Position numbers and translations under genes: made by a program. A model generated the notes under the pieces. The model saw nothing but the letters and a program-made list of their open reading frames with translations. It had not been told where the DNA came from and did not search any database. Of a stretch of 64,000 nucleotides of DNA, positions 3,967-60,700 are shown piece after piece; position 1 is the first letter of the stretch; the number at the start of each line of letters is the position of its first letter. This DNA comes from a virus, in the IMG/VR virus record IMGVR_UViG_3300021067_000001, positions 1 to 64,000 of that record. One strand, given 5' to 3'.

Positions 3967-4695
3967 ATGCGGCAGCGTCGCATAGCTCGCATGCCATGGC
4001 TGGGCCAGGCAATGCTTCTGAGGAAGACGCCCATCGCTTTCATTGACGGAGAGCCAATCTATCCGATTTTCGGATCTGATGGAGAAGGCAATTCTGGCGG
4101 TGAAAATGACGATAAGGACGCCGGTGGCTCCGGTTCGGGCGCAGATGACGATGCAGATGATGAAGGTGATTCCAAGGAGGAACCACCCACTAATCCCAAG
4201 GAGTACAAGGCTTGGTTGAAGAACCAAGAGTTGTCTCGGGAGAATGCAAGTCGTCGTCGCAAGAACCGTGAATTGCTAGATGCGCTTGAAGCTCGGGACA
4301 AAGAACTTGAGGCTATCAGGCAAAAGGATTTGACTGAGCTGCAGAAGGCGCAAACTGCAGCCACAAAGGCAGAGAAGACAATTTTAGAGTTGACAGCAAG
4401 GTTGAGAGATCAGCAGGTCGAGCTTGCTTTTCTCAAGCTGCCGAGGGAGAAGTATGATTGGGAATCTCCTGCTGCAGCCCTTACGCTCCTTATAGCAGAG
4501 CATGGTTCAGATTTGGAATTGTCCGATGATGGATCGGTTGAAGGATTGGATAAGGCAGTAAAAGCTTTGGCTAGCAAGCACAAGTTTCTTCTGAAGCAGC
4601 CCGCAGCCAGCAAGAATGGATCTACTGGAGGCAACTTCAGCGGTGATAGCGGCGGCGCACAGAAGGAAGATGCTGCGAAGCGTTTTCGGTTCTAG
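3967..4695 (+). CDS. scaffolding protein (by composition and position)
   Basis: GGAGG RBS. Acidic low-complexity N-part (GADDDADDEGD) followed by a long K/E/L/A coiled-coil-like region. Immediately upstream of the capsid genes. Confidence 0.6.
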   Translation: MRQRRIARMPWLGQAMLLRKTPIAFIDGEPIYPIFGSDGEGNSGGENDDKDAGGSGSGADDDADDEGDSKEEPPTNPKEYKAWLKNQELSRENASRRRKNRELLDALEARDKELEAIRQKDLTELQKAQTAATKAEKTILELTARLRDQQVELAFLKLPREKYDWESPAAALTLLIAEHGSDLELSDDGSVEGLDKAVKALASKHKFLLKQPAASKNGSTGGNFSGDSGGAQKEDAAKRFRF

Positions 4696-21656: not shown

Positions 21657-21830
21657 ATGACGCATGAACACACGATTGGATCGCCCGTTGATTTGCAGGC
21701 TTTCCATGGTCACGGCGAGGTAGGCGGTCCGGAACATGACCGTGATTTGCCAAACGCCTGGGAATTGCCGGAGTATGACAATGTAGAGGATTCCTTGGCT
21801 CCCCCGCTGGATGGCGATTTGGAGGACTAA
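21657..21830 (+). CDS. small acidic protein
   Basis: ATG 21657 (the ORF opens at TTG 21645); 57 aa, Asp/Glu-rich. TAATG coupling to the endolysin gene. Confidence 0.4.
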   Translation: MTHEHTIGSPVDLQAFHGHGEVGGPEHDRDLPNAWELPEYDNVEDSLAPPLDGDLED

Positions 21831-22714
21831 TGCCTTTGCTTTTGGTGCAAAAAGGGCATTGTTATAGAACAACCGGGGCTACAGGCACGACCGGTGAACA
21901 GCAATATGCAACGCAGGTTGCAGATGCTTGCGTTCGTTTGCTAGATGGTAAGAACGGTTGGGATGTCAAGGCGGTTCTGGCAGACATTTCTTTGGATTCT
22001 TACCGCGCTGACGCTTTTGCTGCAGTACATTGCGATGGATCTACCAATCCCACCGCGCGGGGATCTTCAGTTGGCTATAAGACTCCTGAAGGACAAAGAC
22101 TTGCGCAAGCCTGGGAGAGAGCTTATGCAGCTCGGGGTTGGCCAATTTTTCGCGATGACAATTACACGGCAGCTTTGAAGAATTACTACGGCGTTAGCAA
22201 TGCAATTTCAGCTGGCTGTCGCCGAGCATTCATCATGGAATGCGGATTCATGACGAATCCTGAAGATCGTCTATTGATGACGGAGCCTGGCGGCGTGGAT
22301 CGCGTCGCCCTGGCGTTGGGCGATGCACTTGGAATCCAAATGGAGGGTGACGTGGCTGAATCGCGGACGGATGTAACGCATGCGTATCGTTGGTGGTCAT
22401 TTCAGAAGGCTGAAGAGCGAATTCCTGCTGCTCATCGAGCTGCTGTTCCAGAGCTTTTCAATCCTCAAGGGCTTGGCGAAGAGTTGCCGATGGTATCGCA
22501 TCTTCTTTCTGAAATGGGAAGAGTTCAGGCCATGGTGCGGATGCAGGAACGCGTTAGCTTTGGTCCTGCGGGAAGAGTGACTGATGAAGGTCGCACAGGT
22601 GAAGTCAATCTACTCGCTCGTAAGTTGAACAAGATGGAAAAGGACATCGAGGAAATCAAGTCAATTCTTCTTGGAAGCGGTGGGCCGCTTCCTGGCGGCA
22701 GAGGGAGCGAGTGA
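21830..22714 (+). CDS. endolysin, N-acetylmuramoyl-L-alanine amidase (Amidase_3-like)
   Basis: AFAAVHCDGS and RRAFIMECGFMTNPEDRLLM fit the His...Glu zinc-amidase pattern. Adjacent to the holin gene. Confidence 0.8.
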   Translation: MPLLLVQKGHCYRTTGATGTTGEQQYATQVADACVRLLDGKNGWDVKAVLADISLDSYRADAFAAVHCDGSTNPTARGSSVGYKTPEGQRLAQAWERAYAARGWPIFRDDNYTAALKNYYGVSNAISAGCRRAFIMECGFMTNPEDRLLMTEPGGVDRVALALGDALGIQMEGDVAESRTDVTHAYRWWSFQKAEERIPAAHRAAVPELFNPQGLGEELPMVSHLLSEMGRVQAMVRMQERVSFGPAGRVTDEGRTGEVNLLARKLNKMEKDIEEIKSILLGSGGPLPGGRGSE

Positions 22715-22715
22715 A

Positions 22716-23195
22716 ATGATAAGCAATAGCGAGCGAATTACAAAGAACTGGGCTGGAAACACTTTTGACAGAGTTTGGCGAACTGGTCTCCAAGTGTTTC
22801 TTGCATATTTGAGTGTCGCTCAACTTTTTCACATGGTTCAATGGATTCCCGCAATTTCCTCTGCACTATTCGCAATGCTTCTTTCCGCGCTTACCAGTTT
22901 GGTTGCGATGCCGAGCTTTGGCGAGGCTTGGTATTTTCAAGTTGCTGAACGGGCAGTCAAGACATTTGCACAGTCTTTGCTGACTTTTATTGGCGCTGCC
23001 GCTGCATTCGATGAAGTTGATTGGAGAATGGGATTTTCCGCTGCAATTGTGGCGACAATCTACAGCGTTGGTACCAGCATCTTGACAACGCGCGTTGGCG
23101 AGCAAATTGCCAAGGGTAACGTTGATCTTACCATTCCAGATTCATATCGTCGTCCTACAGCTGCCAATGGTAGTTCAGGCGGAACGGGATTTTGA
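22716..23195 (+). CDS. holin (r1t/LL-H-like, tentative)
   Basis: ATG 22716. Hydrophobic helices and an ERAVKTFAQSLLTFIG motif. Last gene before a strong terminator. Confidence 0.65.
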   Translation: MISNSERITKNWAGNTFDRVWRTGLQVFLAYLSVAQLFHMVQWIPAISSALFAMLLSALTSLVAMPSFGEAWYFQVAERAVKTFAQSLLTFIGAAAAFDEVDWRMGFSAAIVATIYSVGTSILTTRVGEQIAKGNVDLTIPDSYRRPTAANGSSGGTGF

Positions 23196-23247
23196 AATTC
23201 GCGCATAGGGTAGGATAGAGTTAGCGACCATGCTGGCTCGCAAATTG

Positions 23248-23280
23248 GCCCCAGAGGTATGCAGCAGATACCTCTGGGGC
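23248..23280 (+). terminator. terminator hairpin ending the late (lysis) operon
   Basis: GCCCCAGAGGTAT-gcagcag-ATACCTCTGGGGC gives a 13-bp perfect stem. The downstream U tract is weak (tgattcgtattc). Confidence 0.6.
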
Positions 23281-23389
23281 TGATTCGTATTCGCGCGCTG
23301 GGTGACCTAGACCATCTTCCCTCCCAGGGGAGGTGGTCACCCTCCCTGGTGCAAATGCTACGCATTTGCCAAGGTGCGCGTCTAGGCTA

Positions 23390-23640
23390 CGCTGTACCTT
23401 ATCGCGTATCCGCGCCAGGAACAATCGCGGGGTAAACACATTCGCGCGCAAAAACGCGCGTGTGGCGACGCTGGCGCGATATCGCGCTGGCGCGGCAAAA
23501 CTACGGGCGCATATGCGCGCGCGTAGTATCATCGCGTACTGGCGCGCGAAAACACAATCGCTCGCGTATTTCATGTCTCGCGCGAATCCAGAGGAAGCGC
23601 GCGCGTTCATTTGTTTCTCGCGCGTGGGCGTCACTTTTAC
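23390..23640. repeat. CpG-dense palindrome/iteron-like block
   Basis: Perfect palindromes GCGCGATATCGCGC (23474-23487) and GCGCATATGCGC (23507-23518). CGCGCGcaaaaaCGCGCG at 23443-23460. Recurring CTGGCGCG x3, TCGCGTA x3, TCTCGCGCG x2. About 45 CpG in 240 nt by hand count. Confidence 0.8.
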
Positions 23641-23653
23641 AGATCGTCTTCCA

Positions 23654-23701
23654 CCCCCACCCCCACCCCTACCCCATAACCCCTTCCCCTCCCCCTCCCC
23701 C
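23654..23701. repeat. C-rich tract with eight runs of C4-5 (G-quadruplex/i-motif potential)
   Basis: CCCCCaCCCCCaCCCCtaCCCCataaCCCCttCCCCtCCCCCtCCCCC. The complement carries eight G4-5 runs. Confidence 0.85.
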
Positions 23702-23927
23702 TGCTTCGCGCCCGCGATCCTTATGCGCTTTCGCGCGTCGAGCCGCTAGGCCGAACGGAGTAGCCGCAAGTTACGCCATTCGGGGGATACCGCCGCCCAG
23801 GGGCCGTGGGGTAGCGTTCTCCTCGTTGGGCCGAACGGAGCGGAAGCCCCCGAAAGCCCCTCAAGGCTCCAGGGCCAGCGAGAAGGCGTAAGGCGCGCTC
23901 CAGCCAGGAACCTGCCGAAAGAGAAGC

Positions 23928-23956
23928 TAGACTTTTCCACGCAAGTCGGGTAAGGT
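23928..23956 (+). promoter_or_regulatory. promoter-like element P1 (TAGACT-N17-TAAGGT)
   Basis: cTAGACT, then 17 nt ending in GGG, then TAAGGTAC. The same architecture recurs at 24016 and 35941. Confidence 0.4.
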
Positions 23957-24015
23957 ACGAGTTAGCGCAAGGGTAAGGCCGGCAGAGGCTCCGAGCGCTA
24001 GGGCAAGACCCGGAC

Positions 24016-24044
24016 TAGACGCCCGGGGTAAGGTACGGTAAGGT
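24016..24044 (+). promoter_or_regulatory. promoter-like element P2 (TAGACG-N17-TAAGGT)
   Basis: cTAGACG, then 17 nt, then TAAGGTAC. The spacer contains a tandem copy of GTAAGGTACG (24028-24047). Confidence 0.4.
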
Positions 24045-24049
24045 ACGCG

Positions 24050-24533
24050 GTAGCGGGTCCGACCCCCGCATCGCAGAAGGAGTCGCCACAGCGGCTCGTA
24101 ACGAGGTCACGACAGGGTAACCCCTGAAGGCTGCGGCAGCATCAGCTGCCCGACGCAGCACGCAGGGCTCCGGTGATCACTGTGGATATGTGAATAGAGA
24201 GAGCGCGAGCCATACTCGCCGACGGCCAGTCCAAGATCCTCCGTAGGAGGGGAGACCGCCAGGGAACCGGATTAGCAACCCGGGAAGTCGAGCCGAGCAG
24301 ACGCAGAGGGAACCGGTGCGCACCATCGCAGCCGGAAAACTAGCCAAGAAGGGCGAAAACTCTGCAGGAACCGTAGCGCCGCTGGAAGAGCCGGAGAACC
24401 AGTAATAGGCCGGTAAGTCAGATGCCGCCAAGAGAACCTTAGCTTGTGATCGGCAGCCTACCCCTAGCCATTTAAATCGGCATGGAGTAGGCTGCCCTCC
24501 AGAGGTTAGGGATCAAGAACTTAGGGAGACGAG
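24050..24533 (+). ncRNA. candidate ~480-nt untranslated leader or structured ncRNA (unclassified)
   Basis: No ORF with an RBS. Purine-rich. AGGGAACCGG occurs twice (24261, 24307), with further GGAACC copies. A 10-bp stem GGCAGCCTAC/GTAGGCTGCC spans 24452-24496. Lies downstream of P1/P2. Confidence 0.3.
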
Positions 24534-24701
24534 ATGTTATTTTCGATTATGAACGGAACGTTGAAGGTAGCGGTTCGAGTGTTGCCGCCTAAGGTTGGAG
24601 AGGAAGTTATCGCATTCGTTTTTCCGGAACTTCCTTGGCGCTTCAAGGTAGTTTCGGTGAACGAGAAGGAGCGCACGGCTCACGTGCACCGCATCTACTA
24701 G
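24534..24701 (+). CDS. small hypothetical protein (55 aa)
   Basis: ATG with GGGAGAC RBS. MLFSIMNGTLKVAVRVLPPKVGEEVIAFVFPELPWRFKVVSVNEKERTAHVHRIY. Below the ORF-track cutoff. Confidence 0.5.
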   Translation: MLFSIMNGTLKVAVRVLPPKVGEEVIAFVFPELPWRFKVVSVNEKERTAHVHRIY

Positions 24702-24767
24702 CCGGTCGAAACGCCGCAAGGCGTCGGACGCAAGGCAGCGTCCCTGAAGATGACCTGAGGAGTAGAA

Positions 24768-25208
24768 ATGACCGAGATCACGGCCAACGAGACCACCGCG
24801 ACTGACGCCAAGACCGCGAAGGCCAAGGACTTCACCGCCTACGTCGCCAAGAAGCCGACCAGCCTTCACGAGCACTACGCGGCGTGGATGCTGGAGAAGA
24901 CCGGCCTGGAGCTGAACGTGCAGTCCGATGACGTGACGAAGATCGTGCAGCTGGCCGTCAGCCTCTACCACGACTACCAGGCCAGCCCGGAGAACAAGGC
25001 GCGGCGTGAGGCGGAGCAGGCCAGCAAGCCGGCCAAGACGCCATCCAAGGTCAAGCAGGAGCTGGCCAACAAGGATGCCGAAATCCAGCGCCTGAAGGCT
25101 GAACTGGAGGCTGCGAAGGCGACGCCGGCCAACGGTGCTCCGGCGGCTACGGCTACCGGTGAGGCATCGGCGAAGCCGGTCGGCCGGCGCACCGTCGCCA
25201 AGAAGTGA
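24768..25208 (+). CDS. Ala/Lys/Pro-rich-tailed protein, paralog A (putative nucleoid/DNA-associated)
   Basis: GAGGAG RBS. Conserved core DFTAYVAKKPTSLHEHY..W...KTGLEL...KIVQLAVSLY..YQASPENKARR, then an A/K/E/P low-complexity tail. About 60% identical in the core to 36014..36508. Confidence 0.75.
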   Translation: MTEITANETTATDAKTAKAKDFTAYVAKKPTSLHEHYAAWMLEKTGLELNVQSDDVTKIVQLAVSLYHDYQASPENKARREAEQASKPAKTPSKVKQELANKDAEIQRLKAELEAAKATPANGAPAATATGEASAKPVGRRTVAKK

Positions 25209-27982: not shown

Positions 27983-28055
27983 GCCTCATTAGCTCAGTGG
28001 ATAGAGCAGCAGCCTTCTAAGCTGCGAGTCGCTGGTTCGAATCCAGCATGGGGCA
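27983..28055 (+). tRNA. tRNA-Arg (anticodon UCU)
   Basis: Full cloverleaf. Acceptor GCCTCAT/ATGGGGC, D arm GCTC-AGTGGATA-GAGC, anticodon arm GCAGC-CTTCTAA-GCTGC, 5-nt variable loop, T arm GCTGG-TTCGAAT-CCAGC, discriminator A. Confidence 0.85.
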
Positions 28056-28086
28056 CGCCAACAATGGCAGATTTAAGGGAGCCAGC

Positions 28087-31207: not shown

Positions 31208-31212
31208 AATGG

Positions 31213-31301
31213 ATCGCTGTGACCACGGCATGGGGTCAGTTGGTCTGGAGCACCAAGCAGAATGGAGTTTGGTGTGGTTGGTTCGAATCCAACCAGCGAG
31301 C
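31213..31301 (+). tRNA. possible type II tRNA (Ser-like, anticodon GGA) with irregular geometry
   Basis: T arm GTTGG-TTCGAAT-CCAAC. Acceptor ATCGCTG/CAGCGAG with a 1:72 mismatch. D arm GACC...GGTC. Anticodon arm TTGGT-CTGGAGC-ACCAA. 20-nt variable region. Linker lengths are atypical. Confidence 0.4.
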
Positions 31302-31327
31302 GCATTAACACTACTCAGGAGGTAGTC

Positions 31328-35908: not shown

Positions 35909-35940
35909 ATTGCATTGCAATCAAGGCCGGAAAGATCGAC

Positions 35941-35969
35941 TAGCCATGGCCGGTCGAATAGGGTAAGGT
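35941..35969 (+). promoter_or_regulatory. promoter-like element P3 (TAGCCA-N17-TAAGGT)
   Basis: cTAGCCA, then 17 nt ending in GGG, then TAAGGTAA. Lies about 45 nt upstream of ATG 36014. Same architecture as P1/P2. Confidence 0.45.
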
Positions 35970-36013
35970 AATAAAAGTATCAGGCCAGCATGGTCCCAAA
36001 TTCGAGGAGAAGC

Positions 36014-36508
36014 ATGACTACCACCGAAGCCAACGAGGCTGTCGAGACTCCGGCAGAGGTTGTGCCGACGGAGGAGACGCCCAAGGCTGAGAAGTCCAAG
36101 GGCGAGGATTACACCAAGTACGTGGAGAAGGAGCCGACCAACCTTCACGTCCACTACTGGGACTGGATCAAGTCCAAGACGGGCCTGGAGCTTGCGGTGG
36201 CGGATGACGTTGCCGTCAAGATCGTGCAGATCGCTGTGAGTGCGTACCAGAAGTATCAGGCTTCGCCGGAGAACAAGCAGCGTCGTGTCGATGAGGCCCA
36301 GGCGCGCGAGGAGGCTGTCGAGGCAGCCAAGGCAGAAAAGGCCAAGAAGGCCGCAGCGAAGGCTGCGGAGAAGGCCAAGGCTGCTGAGGATGCCAAGACT
36401 GAGGCTGCTGCTGCCGGTGATGGCGAGGCCGCGAAGCGCCAGCCGCCGCCGCGCAAGGGCGCCAAGGCTTCTGCGACCAAGGCCGCTGCAGGCGAAGCTC
36501 CGTTCTGA
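36014..36508 (+). CDS. Ala/Lys-rich-tailed protein, paralog B (putative nucleoid/DNA-associated)
   Basis: GAGGAGAAGC RBS. Core DYTKYVEKEPTNLHVHY..W...KTGLEL...KIVQIAVSAY..YQASPENKQRR. Tail AAKAEKAKKAAAKAAEKAKAAEDAKTEAAAA resembles histone H1 or actinobacterial HU tails. Confidence 0.75.
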   Translation: MTTTEANEAVETPAEVVPTEETPKAEKSKGEDYTKYVEKEPTNLHVHYWDWIKSKTGLELAVADDVAVKIVQIAVSAYQKYQASPENKQRRVDEAQAREEAVEAAKAEKAKKAAAKAAEKAKAAEDAKTEAAAAGDGEAAKRQPPPRKGAKASATKAAAGEAPF

Positions 36509-59591: not shown

Positions 59592-59930
59592 TTAATAGCT
59601 TTGTTCTAGTAGGTATTCGTTTGCGGTATGTTTTCCGTCCGATTCGTCCCTTTCGTACTTGTTGATCCTTTTCGAGGAAAGTAGTCGAGCGATTACGGAA
59701 GGTAGGTTTTTTCTTATATTACGGAGAGTAGTCGAGGCGAACGGCGTGAATTCTATATTGAATTTGAGCAGAAAGGGATCTAAAGGAACCTTTAGAAGGA
59801 CCGATATATCGGTTACTGTCAGTAACCATAAGAAGATTCTACTTAGGACTAAACCCACCCGAAAAACCGGAAACACACATGTTAACCCACGGCTAACTAA
59901 GTTATCTTGATGATTGACGGAGAGTAGCAT
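59592..59930 (-). CDS. only minus-strand ORF with a credible start (112 aa, hydrophobic); may be non-coding
   Basis: ATG preceded by AAGAGGAAGAAG (GAGG 6 nt upstream). However, the ORF spans the palindrome/repeat cluster of an AT-rich intergenic region. Confidence 0.3.
   Translation of the reverse strand: MLLSVNHQDNLVSRGLTCVFPVFRVGLVLSRIFLWLLTVTDISVLLKVPLDPFLLKFNIEFTPFASTTLRNIRKNLPSVIARLLSSKRINKYERDESDGKHTANEYLLEQSY
59680..59927. repeat. dispersed direct repeats (iteron-like)
   Basis: AGTAGTCGAG at 59680 and 59727. ATTACGGA at 59692 and 59718. ACGGAGAGTAG at 59721 and 59917. Confidence 0.7.
59780..59827. promoter_or_regulatory. cluster of three palindromes (operator/origin-like)
   Basis: CTAAAGGaaCCTTTAG (59780-59795), ACCGATATATCGGT (59800-59813) and GGTTACTGtCAGTAACC (59811-59827). 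Confidence 0.7.
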
Positions 59931-60046
59931 CTTCTTCCTCTTATCCTAGAAAAGCTGGGATTATTTGCACGAGCCATCGGTATTTATTTTAAATAGCGAG
60001 GGAAAGCGTTTAAATTTCGTAACAAGGGCGCGCTACCCCCGGGCGG

Positions 60047-60071
60047 TACGCGTTACGCGTAGGGATTTTTT
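60047..60071 (+). terminator. weak terminator-like hairpin plus T run
   Basis: TACGCG-tta-CGCGTA (6-bp stem), then GGGA and TTTTTT. Confidence 0.35.
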
Positions 60072-60110
60072 ATGCACTATTTTAGTTGCTATGCAATTAA
60101 TTTCTGTGAT

Positions 60111-60139
60111 TTTAGCCCAATCGTTTGGCAGGGTAAGAT
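60111..60139 (+). promoter_or_regulatory. promoter-like element upstream of the late small-gene block
   Basis: TTTAGC-N17-TAAGAT preceded by GGG (GGGTAAGAT; compare GGGTAAGGT in P1-P3). About 34 nt upstream of ATG 60173. Confidence 0.3.
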
Positions 60140-60172
60140 TTAATTAAAGTTTGATTAGGCGAATGGGCGATC

Positions 60173-60700
60173 ATGGATATCCTGTCTGATAGCAATTCAT
60201 TTGGACGCGAGTACGAACCTGTGTTCGTTCGGCGCAATGTTACTGGTAAGCCCAGTTTCAAGAACAAGCCATTCAGCAGATTCAAAAGCGAATTCACCAA
60301 CACTAACTTTTATGACGACTGTCACGAGATTTACCGCCAACTGCTTACTGCAGAACGGCGCACTCGTGACATCGACAAGCGTTTGCTGATTACGGGCAAT
60401 AGCCTTTCACAAGCCTTCGCTGAAATCCACCCAATCCTGCTCCGCGCGGGAAAGGTGGCTGATGCGCTGTATGAAGAGGCAGTGTTGGTTCCTGTGATTT
60501 GGCAGAGATTTGTTGATGGGAAGTATGCGCTTACTCCGATTTTGCGGGGATATTACACACTTGATCAAATTCAATATAGGCCATTGTTTATTCCGGGCGA
60601 GGCGCTGGAGACTGAGCGACCATTCATGACGCCCAGTGAGCGCAAGGAAGATGATGTTGTTCGGGCTGAACAAATTGCGTCAAGTCTTGAGGTGAGGTAG
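60173..60700 (+). CDS. hypothetical protein
   Basis: First gene after the 0.6-kb intergenic region; 175 aa. Confidence 0.55.
   Translation: MDILSDSNSFGREYEPVFVRRNVTGKPSFKNKPFSRFKSEFTNTNFYDDCHEIYRQLLTAERRTRDIDKRLLITGNSLSQAFAEIHPILLRAGKVADALYEEAVLVPVIWQRFVDGKYALTPILRGYYTLDQIQYRPLFIPGEALETERPFMTPSERKEDDVVRAEQIASSLEVR

Follow-up and report, generated by a model that had tools for sequence, protein, structure and literature searches.

GOLLD and ROOL are large ornate RNAs that are often carried by phages and prophages. Here, we describe a gene-free block in a siphovirus-like genome (positions 23196-24533 of the 64,000-nt stretch that was analysed, hereafter the window, which is positions 1 to 64,000 of IMG/VR record IMGVR_UViG_3300021067_000001). 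The block lies between the lysis genes and the early genes and very probably encodes a conserved structured RNA. This RNA resembles GOLLD and ROOL in being very large, phage-borne and non-coding and in combining many covarying helices with pseudoknotting and invariant unpaired stretches. It differs from both in that it matches no Rfam model in sequence or structure, is not adjacent to a tRNA gene, lies between tandem promoter-like units and a ribosome-binding site (RBS) in the manner of a leader, and belongs to a phage with an apparently actinobacterial host range. A first-pass annotation of the same DNA had drawn the parallel through tRNA or tRNA-like elements 2.4-3.5 kb downstream of the block. 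Only part of this stands: a tRNA-Arg lies at 3.45 kb and is the nearest, nothing tRNA-like occurs at 2.4 kb, and a tRNA-Ser follows at 6.7 kb. With the nearest tRNA gene at this distance and no such model matching, the analogy by way of tRNAs is weak. One or two tRNA genes are also present in the early region of all seven relatives that were scanned.

The nearest analogue in position is found in cluster A mycobacteriophages. These have ~600-bp regions free of open reading frames (ORFs) immediately after the virion genes; a non-coding RNA is expressed from such regions, which suffice for autonomous replication (Wetzel et al. 2020, PMC7157519). The published RNA of the non-RepA origins is transcribed leftward, next to parA/parABS, and is needed for prophage maintenance, and no structural conservation is reported for it (PMC7157519). 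The block is likewise an ORF-free actinophage region downstream of virion and lysis genes, but its RNA runs rightward into the early genes and its DNA is similar to no record of the phage collection. In addition, no ParA or ParB domain was found among ten larger early-region ORFs, which are a part of all the ORFs there.

Two further systems offer a comparison by position or by size. Lambda nut and HK022 put are promoter-proximal, cis-acting leaders of early operons that consist of one or two stem-loops (~15-75 nt). They share with the block RNA the position of first RNA from the early promoters, upstream of the early genes; unlike them, the block RNA has ~480 nt, at least 14 helices and a pseudoknot, with no excess of terminators downstream. 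ColE1 RNA II, ~550 nt long, is structured and driven by a promoter, and its fold governs events at its 3' end. At the block, in contrast, no antisense promoter of the RNA I type was identified, the phage has its own replication proteins, and there is no homology to RNA II.

Cultured Streptomyces phages may hold an analogous leader. Phage ShakeNBake has an unannotated 855-nt gap (L067 2751-3605; record 59614-60468), of which ~410 nt are purine-rich and which contains repeated promoter-like units; it is 82-100% conserved in 8 other Streptomyces phages. In ShakeNBake, Gibson, Wentworth and their relatives, genes 91/90 lie downstream of the gap; gene 90 is distantly homologous to the first conserved early gene of the window. 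The gap differs in matching neither the covariance model nor the nhmmer profile of the block RNA, and a profile of module E, the hairpin module just upstream of the promoter-like units, gives weak, scattered intergenic matches only.

The structured RNA and its conservation

Relatives of the block were found via the first conserved early protein (18 homologues) and the contigs encoding it. Ten distinct sequences carry the element, namely the window and nine metagenomic relatives (L002, L003, L005, L006, L047, L050, L053, L068 and L070). A further contig, L001, is identical to the window over the block and is not counted, since it is the window's own source, contig k141_711483 (66,686 bp) of ENA assembly ERZ27257325. 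In each of the nine, the block, or as much of it as the contig reaches, lies upstream of the homologous early gene. The distance from the lysis genes to this gene is 1.2-1.6 kb in the contigs that reach far enough (L002, L003, L047, L050 and L068), and gene callers leave the same stretch of the relatives empty or give it inconsistent small ORF calls. We observe 70-75% DNA identity among the relatives over most of the block, beside an early protein that is only ~56-70% identical, which argues that the block is conserved beyond chance.

The alignments of the RNA, whose length is ~480 nt and perhaps ~760 nt if module E is included, consist of invariant blocks split by variable, length-polymorphic segments that remain self-complementary. 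The invariant blocks include GGGTAAGGTACGGTAAGGTACG, AGAGAGAGCGCGA.C.ATAC, ACTAGCC...AAGGGCGA.AAC, and TAGCG.CGC.G.AAGA.C.GGAGA..C.GTAA. For 8 sequences, RNAalifold gave a fold of 91 pairs, and compensatory changes occur in 45 of these. One long-range GGC/GCC pairing of the fold, which is invariant, was then exchanged for a covarying CCGG/CCGG pairing (CUGG/CCAG in three relatives), which forms an H-type pseudoknot with the CUGG/CCAG helix. In the resulting structure of 93 pairs, 92.6% of cells are paired, compared with 32-42% in slid controls, and 47 pairs are changed on both sides, compared with 8-12; none of 500 shuffles reached the observed values. The structure for all 10 sequences retains 84 pairs, with 95.9% of cells paired (33-41% in slid controls) and 43 pairs changed on both sides (7-10 in slid controls), again unmatched by any of 500 shuffles.

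A covariance model of the core, built from the 8 sequences, recovers the two later sequences, which were not used in the model, at 199-212 bits. Both retain the predicted helices with new compensatory pairs, such as CUAG/CUAG in L068. The pseudoknot itself has two covarying helices, with the loop of the first pairing 3' of it: helix 1 changes from CUGG/CCAG to CCGC/GCGG and CUGC/GCAG, and helix 2 from CCGG/CCGG to CUGG/CCAG, the later two sequences included. Each of these helices has 2 covarying pairs, and across the 10 sequences they are 100% and 94% paired. The 3' terminal hairpin shows changes on both sides in 9 of its 9 pairs in the 10-sequence structure. On the plus strand, the 8-sequence structure contains 72 G-U/U-G cells and 13 A-C/C-A cells, and this asymmetry identifies the folded molecule as plus-strand RNA, not DNA. 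Single-sequence folding does not discriminate the strands (z-scores of -2.5 for the plus and -2.9 for the minus strand).

Rfam 15 includes GOLLD, ROOL, HEARO, OLE, raiA, group I and II introns, RNase P, tmRNA, 6S and riboswitches. At gathering thresholds it returned one tRNA only for the whole window; a permissive scan of 23100-24800 gave chance-level matches only (E of at least 0.25, far below gathering), and a scan of 7 homologous loci found nothing inside the conserved region. Judged by these comparisons, the RNA is a new family of a kind, large structured phage RNAs, that is already known. The first-pass annotation had offered a large structured RNA as one possible role of the block and could assign it to no known family; the covariation in the 8- and 10-sequence structures bears out the former, and the gathering and permissive scans of the window and 7 relatives agree with the latter. 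In the early region of L053 (1496-1558), the type II hammerhead ribozyme model has a match that stays below threshold (30.2 bits, gathering 37, E = 0.037).

Searches beyond the contigs above returned little. No match was found when the block and 25 kb were compared by BLASTN with 50,697 phage records, and IMG/VR, searched with two flanking proteins and two invariant DNA words, yielded no relatives. An 18-base-specified word had 11 chance matches in GTDB genomes, none of them homologous by nhmmer, and there is thus no sign of a prophage copy. A metagenome scan with the 20-mer GGTAAGGTACGGTAAGGTAC gave 39 loci, all but two of which are unrelated simple repeats; the two exceptions are a second copy of a locus already known (L006) and one new homologue. 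The covariance model of the core found no further copies in the rest of the window, in the distant relative L054 or in the Streptomyces phage locus L067.

At its 3' end the RNA shows no recognisable U-tailed terminator or processing signal, and its structure reaches to ~30 nt from the RBS. Beside the RBS, in 7 relatives, two partners are available to the segment GCUAAGGG, namely CCCUUAGC upstream and UUAGCC downstream. Folds of single sequences are split between the two forms, one covarying pair backs the upstream form, and the RBS is sequestered in neither. This alternative pairing is a possible switch, on thin evidence. The 55-aa ORF that follows in the window lies outside the conserved element. 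A leader peptide within 24050-24533 was considered and rejected: the few ATGs run into stop codons within 0-6 codons and are unconserved.

The block around this RNA contains no credible gene and is assembled from distinct modules. As the first-pass annotation had stated, its 1338 nt extend from the holin stop to the next RBS-supported ORF, at 24534. The only plus-strand ORFs of the gap, 23333-23749 and 23460-23891, translate into Arg/Ala-rich strings, and Pfam matches neither these nor the longest minus-strand ORF of the gap; 23891-24533 has no plus-strand ORF of at least 40 aa. The 3' stretch of ~480 nt described as purine-rich is 59% purine and has an AT skew of 0.30-0.39. The leader and the first early genes have a strongly positive AT skew (0.3-0.4), and between 20000 and 28000 the G+C content rises from ~0.44-0.54 in the late and lysis genes to ~0.56-0.67 in the early genes, with the block at the boundary.

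Promoter-like units and the left half of the block

Two promoter-like units, P1 and P2, precede the RNA. In both, and across all relatives, the hexamers are spaced by exactly 17 nt, and the spacers of the two units are unrelated to each other. P1 keeps its geometry in 8 relatives with a variable spacer sequence, and its -10 hexamer is TAGAGT, TACAGT or TACACT in L002, L070, L053 and L068, variants that still read TANNNT; T-A---T is the actinobacterial -10 consensus pattern. At P2, GGGTAAGGTACGGTAAGGTACG is invariant in 10 of 10 sequences, and a second tandem copy of GGTAAGGTAC lies within the unit, at 24027-24036. The number of units varies from 1 to 3, with P1 missing in L050 and two P1-type copies in L003. 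Downstream of the copy adjacent to P2 in L003, no more than ~25 nt away, come an RBS and an ORF of 51 codons whose end lies immediately before P2. This inserted ORF (L003 ~4240-4400) is acidic and Cys-rich (MEIFETDEMFEDNSDCVEACGD...), and the other relatives lack it.

The window contains 8 copies of the extended -10 word TA[AG]GGTA, roughly half as many as shuffling predicts, and none is inside coding sequence: five copies are in the block, two overlap in the 81-nt gap that precedes gene 35990, and one is located at a stop codon. L005, L006 and L053 have more copies in their early regions, at gene boundaries or close to them. From the fixed 17-nt spacing with variable spacers, the TANNNT variants, the variation in copy number and the non-coding distribution of the -10 word, we infer that P1 and P2 are promoters of the RNA of the housekeeping-sigma (sigma-70/SigA) type. 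The predicted start from P2 is at ~24050-24052, just before the first conserved hairpin of the RNA (24053-24069). The two promoter-like elements of the first-pass annotation thus recur as conserved TAGACN-17 nt-TAAGGT units, and its suggestion of an early-transcription hub gains support from these tandem units and the non-coding -10 motif. A third promoter-like site, TCGACT-17 nt-TAGGGT overlapping TAAGGTA, is located at 35936-35971, in the 81-nt gap before gene 35990-36508. An unrelated metagenomic contig (L021 11380-11447, L035 1-180) has a hairpin followed by TTGACTTTGGTAAGGTACGGTAAGGTACGGGG, the same tandem decamer in a promoter-like context.

Upstream of P1, module E shows further paired structure. 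For 7 sequences, 88% of cells are paired, compared with 35-50% in slid controls, and 10 pairs have double changes; with 9 sequences, the local hairpins alone survive. A long-range TTACGCC/GGCGTAA helix that closed the module in the 7-sequence structure was dropped because it is broken in L068, L070 and L047.

The terminator hairpin, the hairpins near 23301-23369, the CpG palindrome array and the C tract of the first-pass annotation are all present, at the positions given in Table 1. In the relatives that reach the left half, its parts keep one order: the TA(A/G)GGTA word, the 20-mer, the terminator, the CCUCC/GGAGG hairpin, the CGCG array, the C tract, a second GCGCGCGTTCCTT, and module E. The TAGGGTA motif and the 20-mer are found in six of the six relatives reaching this region (L002, L003, L047, L050, L052 and L068), and the form of the 20-mer that is invariant across relatives is GCGACC.TGCTGGCTCGC, also written TAGCGACC.TGCTGGCTCGC. 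The terminator stem differs among relatives yet stays complementary, and hence covaries; its loop contains CCUCC in five relatives. L003 and L050 have a U-rich tail, that of the window and of L047 being U-rich only in part. The segment 23192-23285, with its anti-Shine-Dalgarno-like loop CCUCC, could be a ~70-nt small RNA or an operator. A reading of 23275-23293 as the 5' end of a tmRNA was rejected, as the likeness is unconserved in relatives and ARAGORN finds no tmRNA. The next hairpins are nearly invariant in the window, L002, L003 and L047, with the form GGGTGAC..CCUCC/GGAGG..GTCACCC across relatives. A leftward -10-like TAAGGTA at 23395-23401, kept in L002 and L047, points into them, and 23301-23401 is possibly a leftward small RNA that ends at a bidirectional terminator.

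The array is strongly enriched in its basic word: CGCG occurs 32 times in 23196-23745 with 4.5 expected (~seven-fold) and about as often as expected in the rest of the window, and CGCGCG reaches 20 per kb in the array versus 0.6 per kb elsewhere. The recurrent motifs TTCGCGCG, CGCGCGTT and GCGCGCGTTCCTT stand out within it, the array words recur in 5-6 relatives despite poor sequence alignment, and L068 has ~70 nt of near-perfect alternation of purines and pyrimidines. The C tract is the sole match to a G-quadruplex-type regular expression on either strand of the 64 kb and is kept in the six relatives reaching it (L002, L003, L047, L050, L006 and L068). It is G-free for ~55 nt and has a composition that would suit a Rho-utilisation (rut) site. 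By eye, no consistent -10 is conserved inside it, with TATAAT in L002 and L068 but CATAAC or CATAGC elsewhere. The repeat GGCCGAACGGAG, noted twice in the block by the first-pass annotation, is real in the window and incidental, since most relatives do not keep it. From its composition and position, we infer that the left half acts as a terminator and insulator, possibly with small RNAs or origin functions. Nine contigs end inside the block (L004, L005, L006, L049, L051, L052, L053, L069 and L070), and the break of L005 falls exactly in the C tract; such breaks may reflect trouble in sequencing or assembling the G-quadruplex and CGCG sequences, or strain variation.

Every gene of the window is on the plus strand. 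The major capsid protein is 51-59% identical to capsid proteins of Gordonia and Mycobacterium phages, from which the host range appears to be actinobacterial. Products of the early and replication region include an SNF2 helicase, a Cas4-like nuclease, a DnaE-type polymerase, ThyX, and a primase-polymerase/D5 helicase.

Table 1. Features of the block and its surroundings, in window positions
Feature	Position	Strand	Description
Endolysin, Amidase_3	21830-22714	+	Lysis cassette
Holin, r1t-type (PF16945)	22671-23195	+	Lysis cassette; Pfam
Promoter-like site at holin stop	23192-23241	+	TTGAAA-18 nt-TAGAGT; TAGGGTA at 23206-23212; promoter scan
Conserved 20-mer TAGCGACCATGCTGGCTCGC	23222-23241	+	Follows the promoter-like site at the holin stop
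Probable late-operon intrinsic terminator hairpin	arms 23243-23260 / 23268-23285	+	14-bp G+C-rich stem, partly U-rich tail
CGCG-rich alternating purine-pyrimidine array	23286-23742		Flanks C tract; includes the hairpins at 23301-23372
Conserved hairpins	23301-23372		GGGTGACC..CCTCC-CAGG-GGAGG..GGTCACCC, then GCAAATGC/GCATTTGC
C tract	23654-23701	+	G-free on plus strand, G-quadruplex-forming on minus strand (by composition)
Module E	23743-23925	+	G+C-rich local hairpins and invariant AAGGCGTNAGGCGC (23883-23896)
P1	23928-23956	+	-35 TAGACT (23928-23933), 17-nt spacer, -10 TAAGGT (23951-23956)
P2	24016-24044	+	-35 TAGACG (24016-24021), 17-nt spacer, -10 TAAGGT (24039-24044)
Structured leader RNA	24050-24533	+	Most conserved core 24105-24421; covariation
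Helix	24053-57 / 24065-69	+	Leader RNA, first conserved hairpin
Helix	24105-10 / 24173-78	+	Leader RNA, encloses three nested helices
Nested helix	24115-17 / 24169-71	+	Inside 24105-10 / 24173-78
Nested helix	24123-26 / 24163-66	+	Inside 24105-10 / 24173-78
Nested helix	24130-34 / 24155-59	+	Inside 24105-10 / 24173-78
Helix	24266-70 / 24280-84	+	Leader RNA
Helix	24303-08 / 24360-65	+	Leader RNA
Helix	24313-19 / 24328-35	+	Leader RNA
H-type pseudoknot	24381-24414	+	GCUGG 24381-85 : CCAGU 24399-24403; GCCGG 24390-94 : CCGGU 24410-14
3' terminal long hairpin	24452-24496	+	GGCAGCCTAC / GTAGGCTGCC; sequence variable, always paired
55-aa ORF	24534-24701	+	GGGAG RBS; in this phage's own lineage only, absent from relatives
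First conserved early gene, 146 aa	24768-25208	+	phrog_20596 / phrog_34140; anchor for relatives
tRNA-Arg(TCT)	27983-28056		Early region
tRNA-Ser(GGA)	31212-31303		Early region

Readings of the block

The block is best read as a control region of a clade of uncultured actinophage-like siphoviruses, situated where the late (lysis) operon gives way to the early genes. We put at roughly 0.6 the probability of this overall reading, in which the region is conserved and non-coding and P1 and P2 drive its main product, a new structured RNA. Under this reading, the late transcript would terminate at the hairpin terminator, and the CGCG array, the G-free C tract and the G+C-rich hairpins, which lie between late transcription and the early promoters, may insulate the two. 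The tandem housekeeping-sigma-type promoters (TAGACN-17 nt-TAAGGT) would fire rightwards, and their first product would be the pseudoknotted RNA of ~480 nt, running without a recognisable terminator into the early genes. For the action of this RNA our preference is tentative and falls a little short of even odds: it may work in cis, as a large leader that controls the early operon and is made at the start of infection, and not as a diffusible molecule. The choice follows from the structure, which continues to ~30 nt from the RBS with no terminator, and from the dual pairing of GCUAAGGG in seven relatives. Such a leader would act by binding the transcribing polymerase or a host factor, or via the alternative pairings at its 3' end beside the RBS.

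Several observations weigh against this account. An excess of terminators in the early region, which would be a sign of antitermination, is not seen (19 found, 19 expected). The hairpins of module E covary with G-U to A-C ratios of 16:4 and ~25:11 (hand tally); this covariation and G-U excess suggest that some rightward transcript starts upstream of P1, where no consistent promoter is found by eye upstream of module E. A scan with the E. coli promoter consensus flags neither P1 nor P2. In the RNAalifold structure, in addition, the second GGUAAGGUAC copy (24037-24048) forms a helix with GCGAGCCAUAC (24205-24216), which is invariant; this helix was kept in the structure but is unproven because it never covaries, and if real it would place the start of the RNA upstream of P2, at P1 or further. 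Both ends of the RNA are predicted positions, and the family is small, with 10 sequences that are all metagenomic.

The rival that survives best, which we nevertheless regard as unlikely, is a free-standing, trans-acting large ornate RNA similar to GOLLD or ROOL and of another family, which would be cut or terminated from the early transcript and function as a stable particle or as a binder of a host factor. Three traits of the block RNA are typical of such RNAs: the size, the pseudoknot, and the numerous invariant unpaired stretches that separate covarying helices. There is also a 5' hairpin at the predicted start and a long, stable 3' hairpin. In the lineage of the window, an additional ORF is tolerated between the RNA and the conserved early gene, and L054 has no match to the RNA core in the 814 nt that its contig holds upstream of the homologous gene. 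Against a free-standing RNA stand the want of a recognisable 3' terminator or processing signal, the absence of any match to the GOLLD, ROOL, HEARO or OLE models, and the constant position directly upstream of an RBS, a linkage that is partly built into the search, since the relatives were found through that early gene.

Distinctly less probable, and argued by analogy, is an RNA-primed origin, in which the P1/P2 transcript, or a leftward G-rich transcript of the C tract, would remain in a persistent RNA-DNA hybrid and prime phage DNA synthesis. A replication origin was the third role that the first-pass annotation had offered. ORF-free, RNA-based origins have a precedent in actinophages (PMC7157519). 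The block occupies the same general place in the genome as the ORF-free origins of cluster A, and it combines a unique tract prone to G-quadruplexes and R-loops with repeated CGCG words and strong promoters. The RNA is also about the size of ColE1 RNA II. However, the published RNAs are leftward, next to parABS and serve prophage maintenance, this phage encodes its own DnaE-type polymerase and primase-polymerase/D5 helicase, no leftward promoter facing the C tract was found, and GC skew shows no signal.

That the block is purely a DNA-level element, an array of protein-binding sites or cruciforms with no functional RNA, is very improbable. Its left half (CGCG words, C tract and GCGCGCGTTCCTT repeats) does resemble DNA signals, and TAAGGTA is found in both orientations, but the 72:13 preference for G-U over A-C and the pseudoknot in 24050-24533 are unexpected for DNA hairpins. 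A missed or frameshifted protein-coding gene on either strand can be set aside almost entirely: although the pyrimidine-rich minus strand is stop-free for 84-230 codons in several relatives, the codon periodicity that the first-pass annotation had named as its refuting sign is absent (variable-site fractions by phase of 0.62, 0.71 and 0.66). Pairwise comparisons show 6-20 indels each, of which no more than 7 have a length divisible by three. In addition, open frames differ among relatives with no plus-strand frame common to them, the gap ORFs (two plus, longest minus) lack Pfam matches, gene callers leave the region empty or disagree in the spurious ORFs that they call, and compensatory base-pair changes account for the conservation.

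Significance of the RNA and its setting

Few RNAs of bacteria and phages exceed ~400 nt and also show strong covariation; GOLLD, ROOL, OLE, HEARO and raiA have each started structural or mechanistic work. The setting of the RNA described here is unusually informative: in a phage with all of its genes on a single strand, it would be the first RNA that the tandem early promoters produce, and its role can therefore be tied to host take-over, early-gene control or the start of replication. The left half brings together a G-quadruplex tract, the only one in the window, a Z-DNA-prone CGCG array and a terminator, and thus offers a compact natural case of non-B DNA beside strong promoters. A practical limit is that all ten members are metagenomic, which leaves no host in hand.

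A bolder reading, which we hold to be a minority possibility, is that the RNA (~480 or ~760 nt) forms a new, actinophage-specific ornate class and is the first transcript of infection. It might bind or re-programme the host transcription or translation machinery or a defence system, or it might prime an origin, which would then be assembled from the adjacent G-quadruplex tract and the Z-DNA-prone array. If this ornate or origin-priming reading is true, the RNA would perform its function without a dedicated protein, in a way that is undescribed for the early regions of phages.

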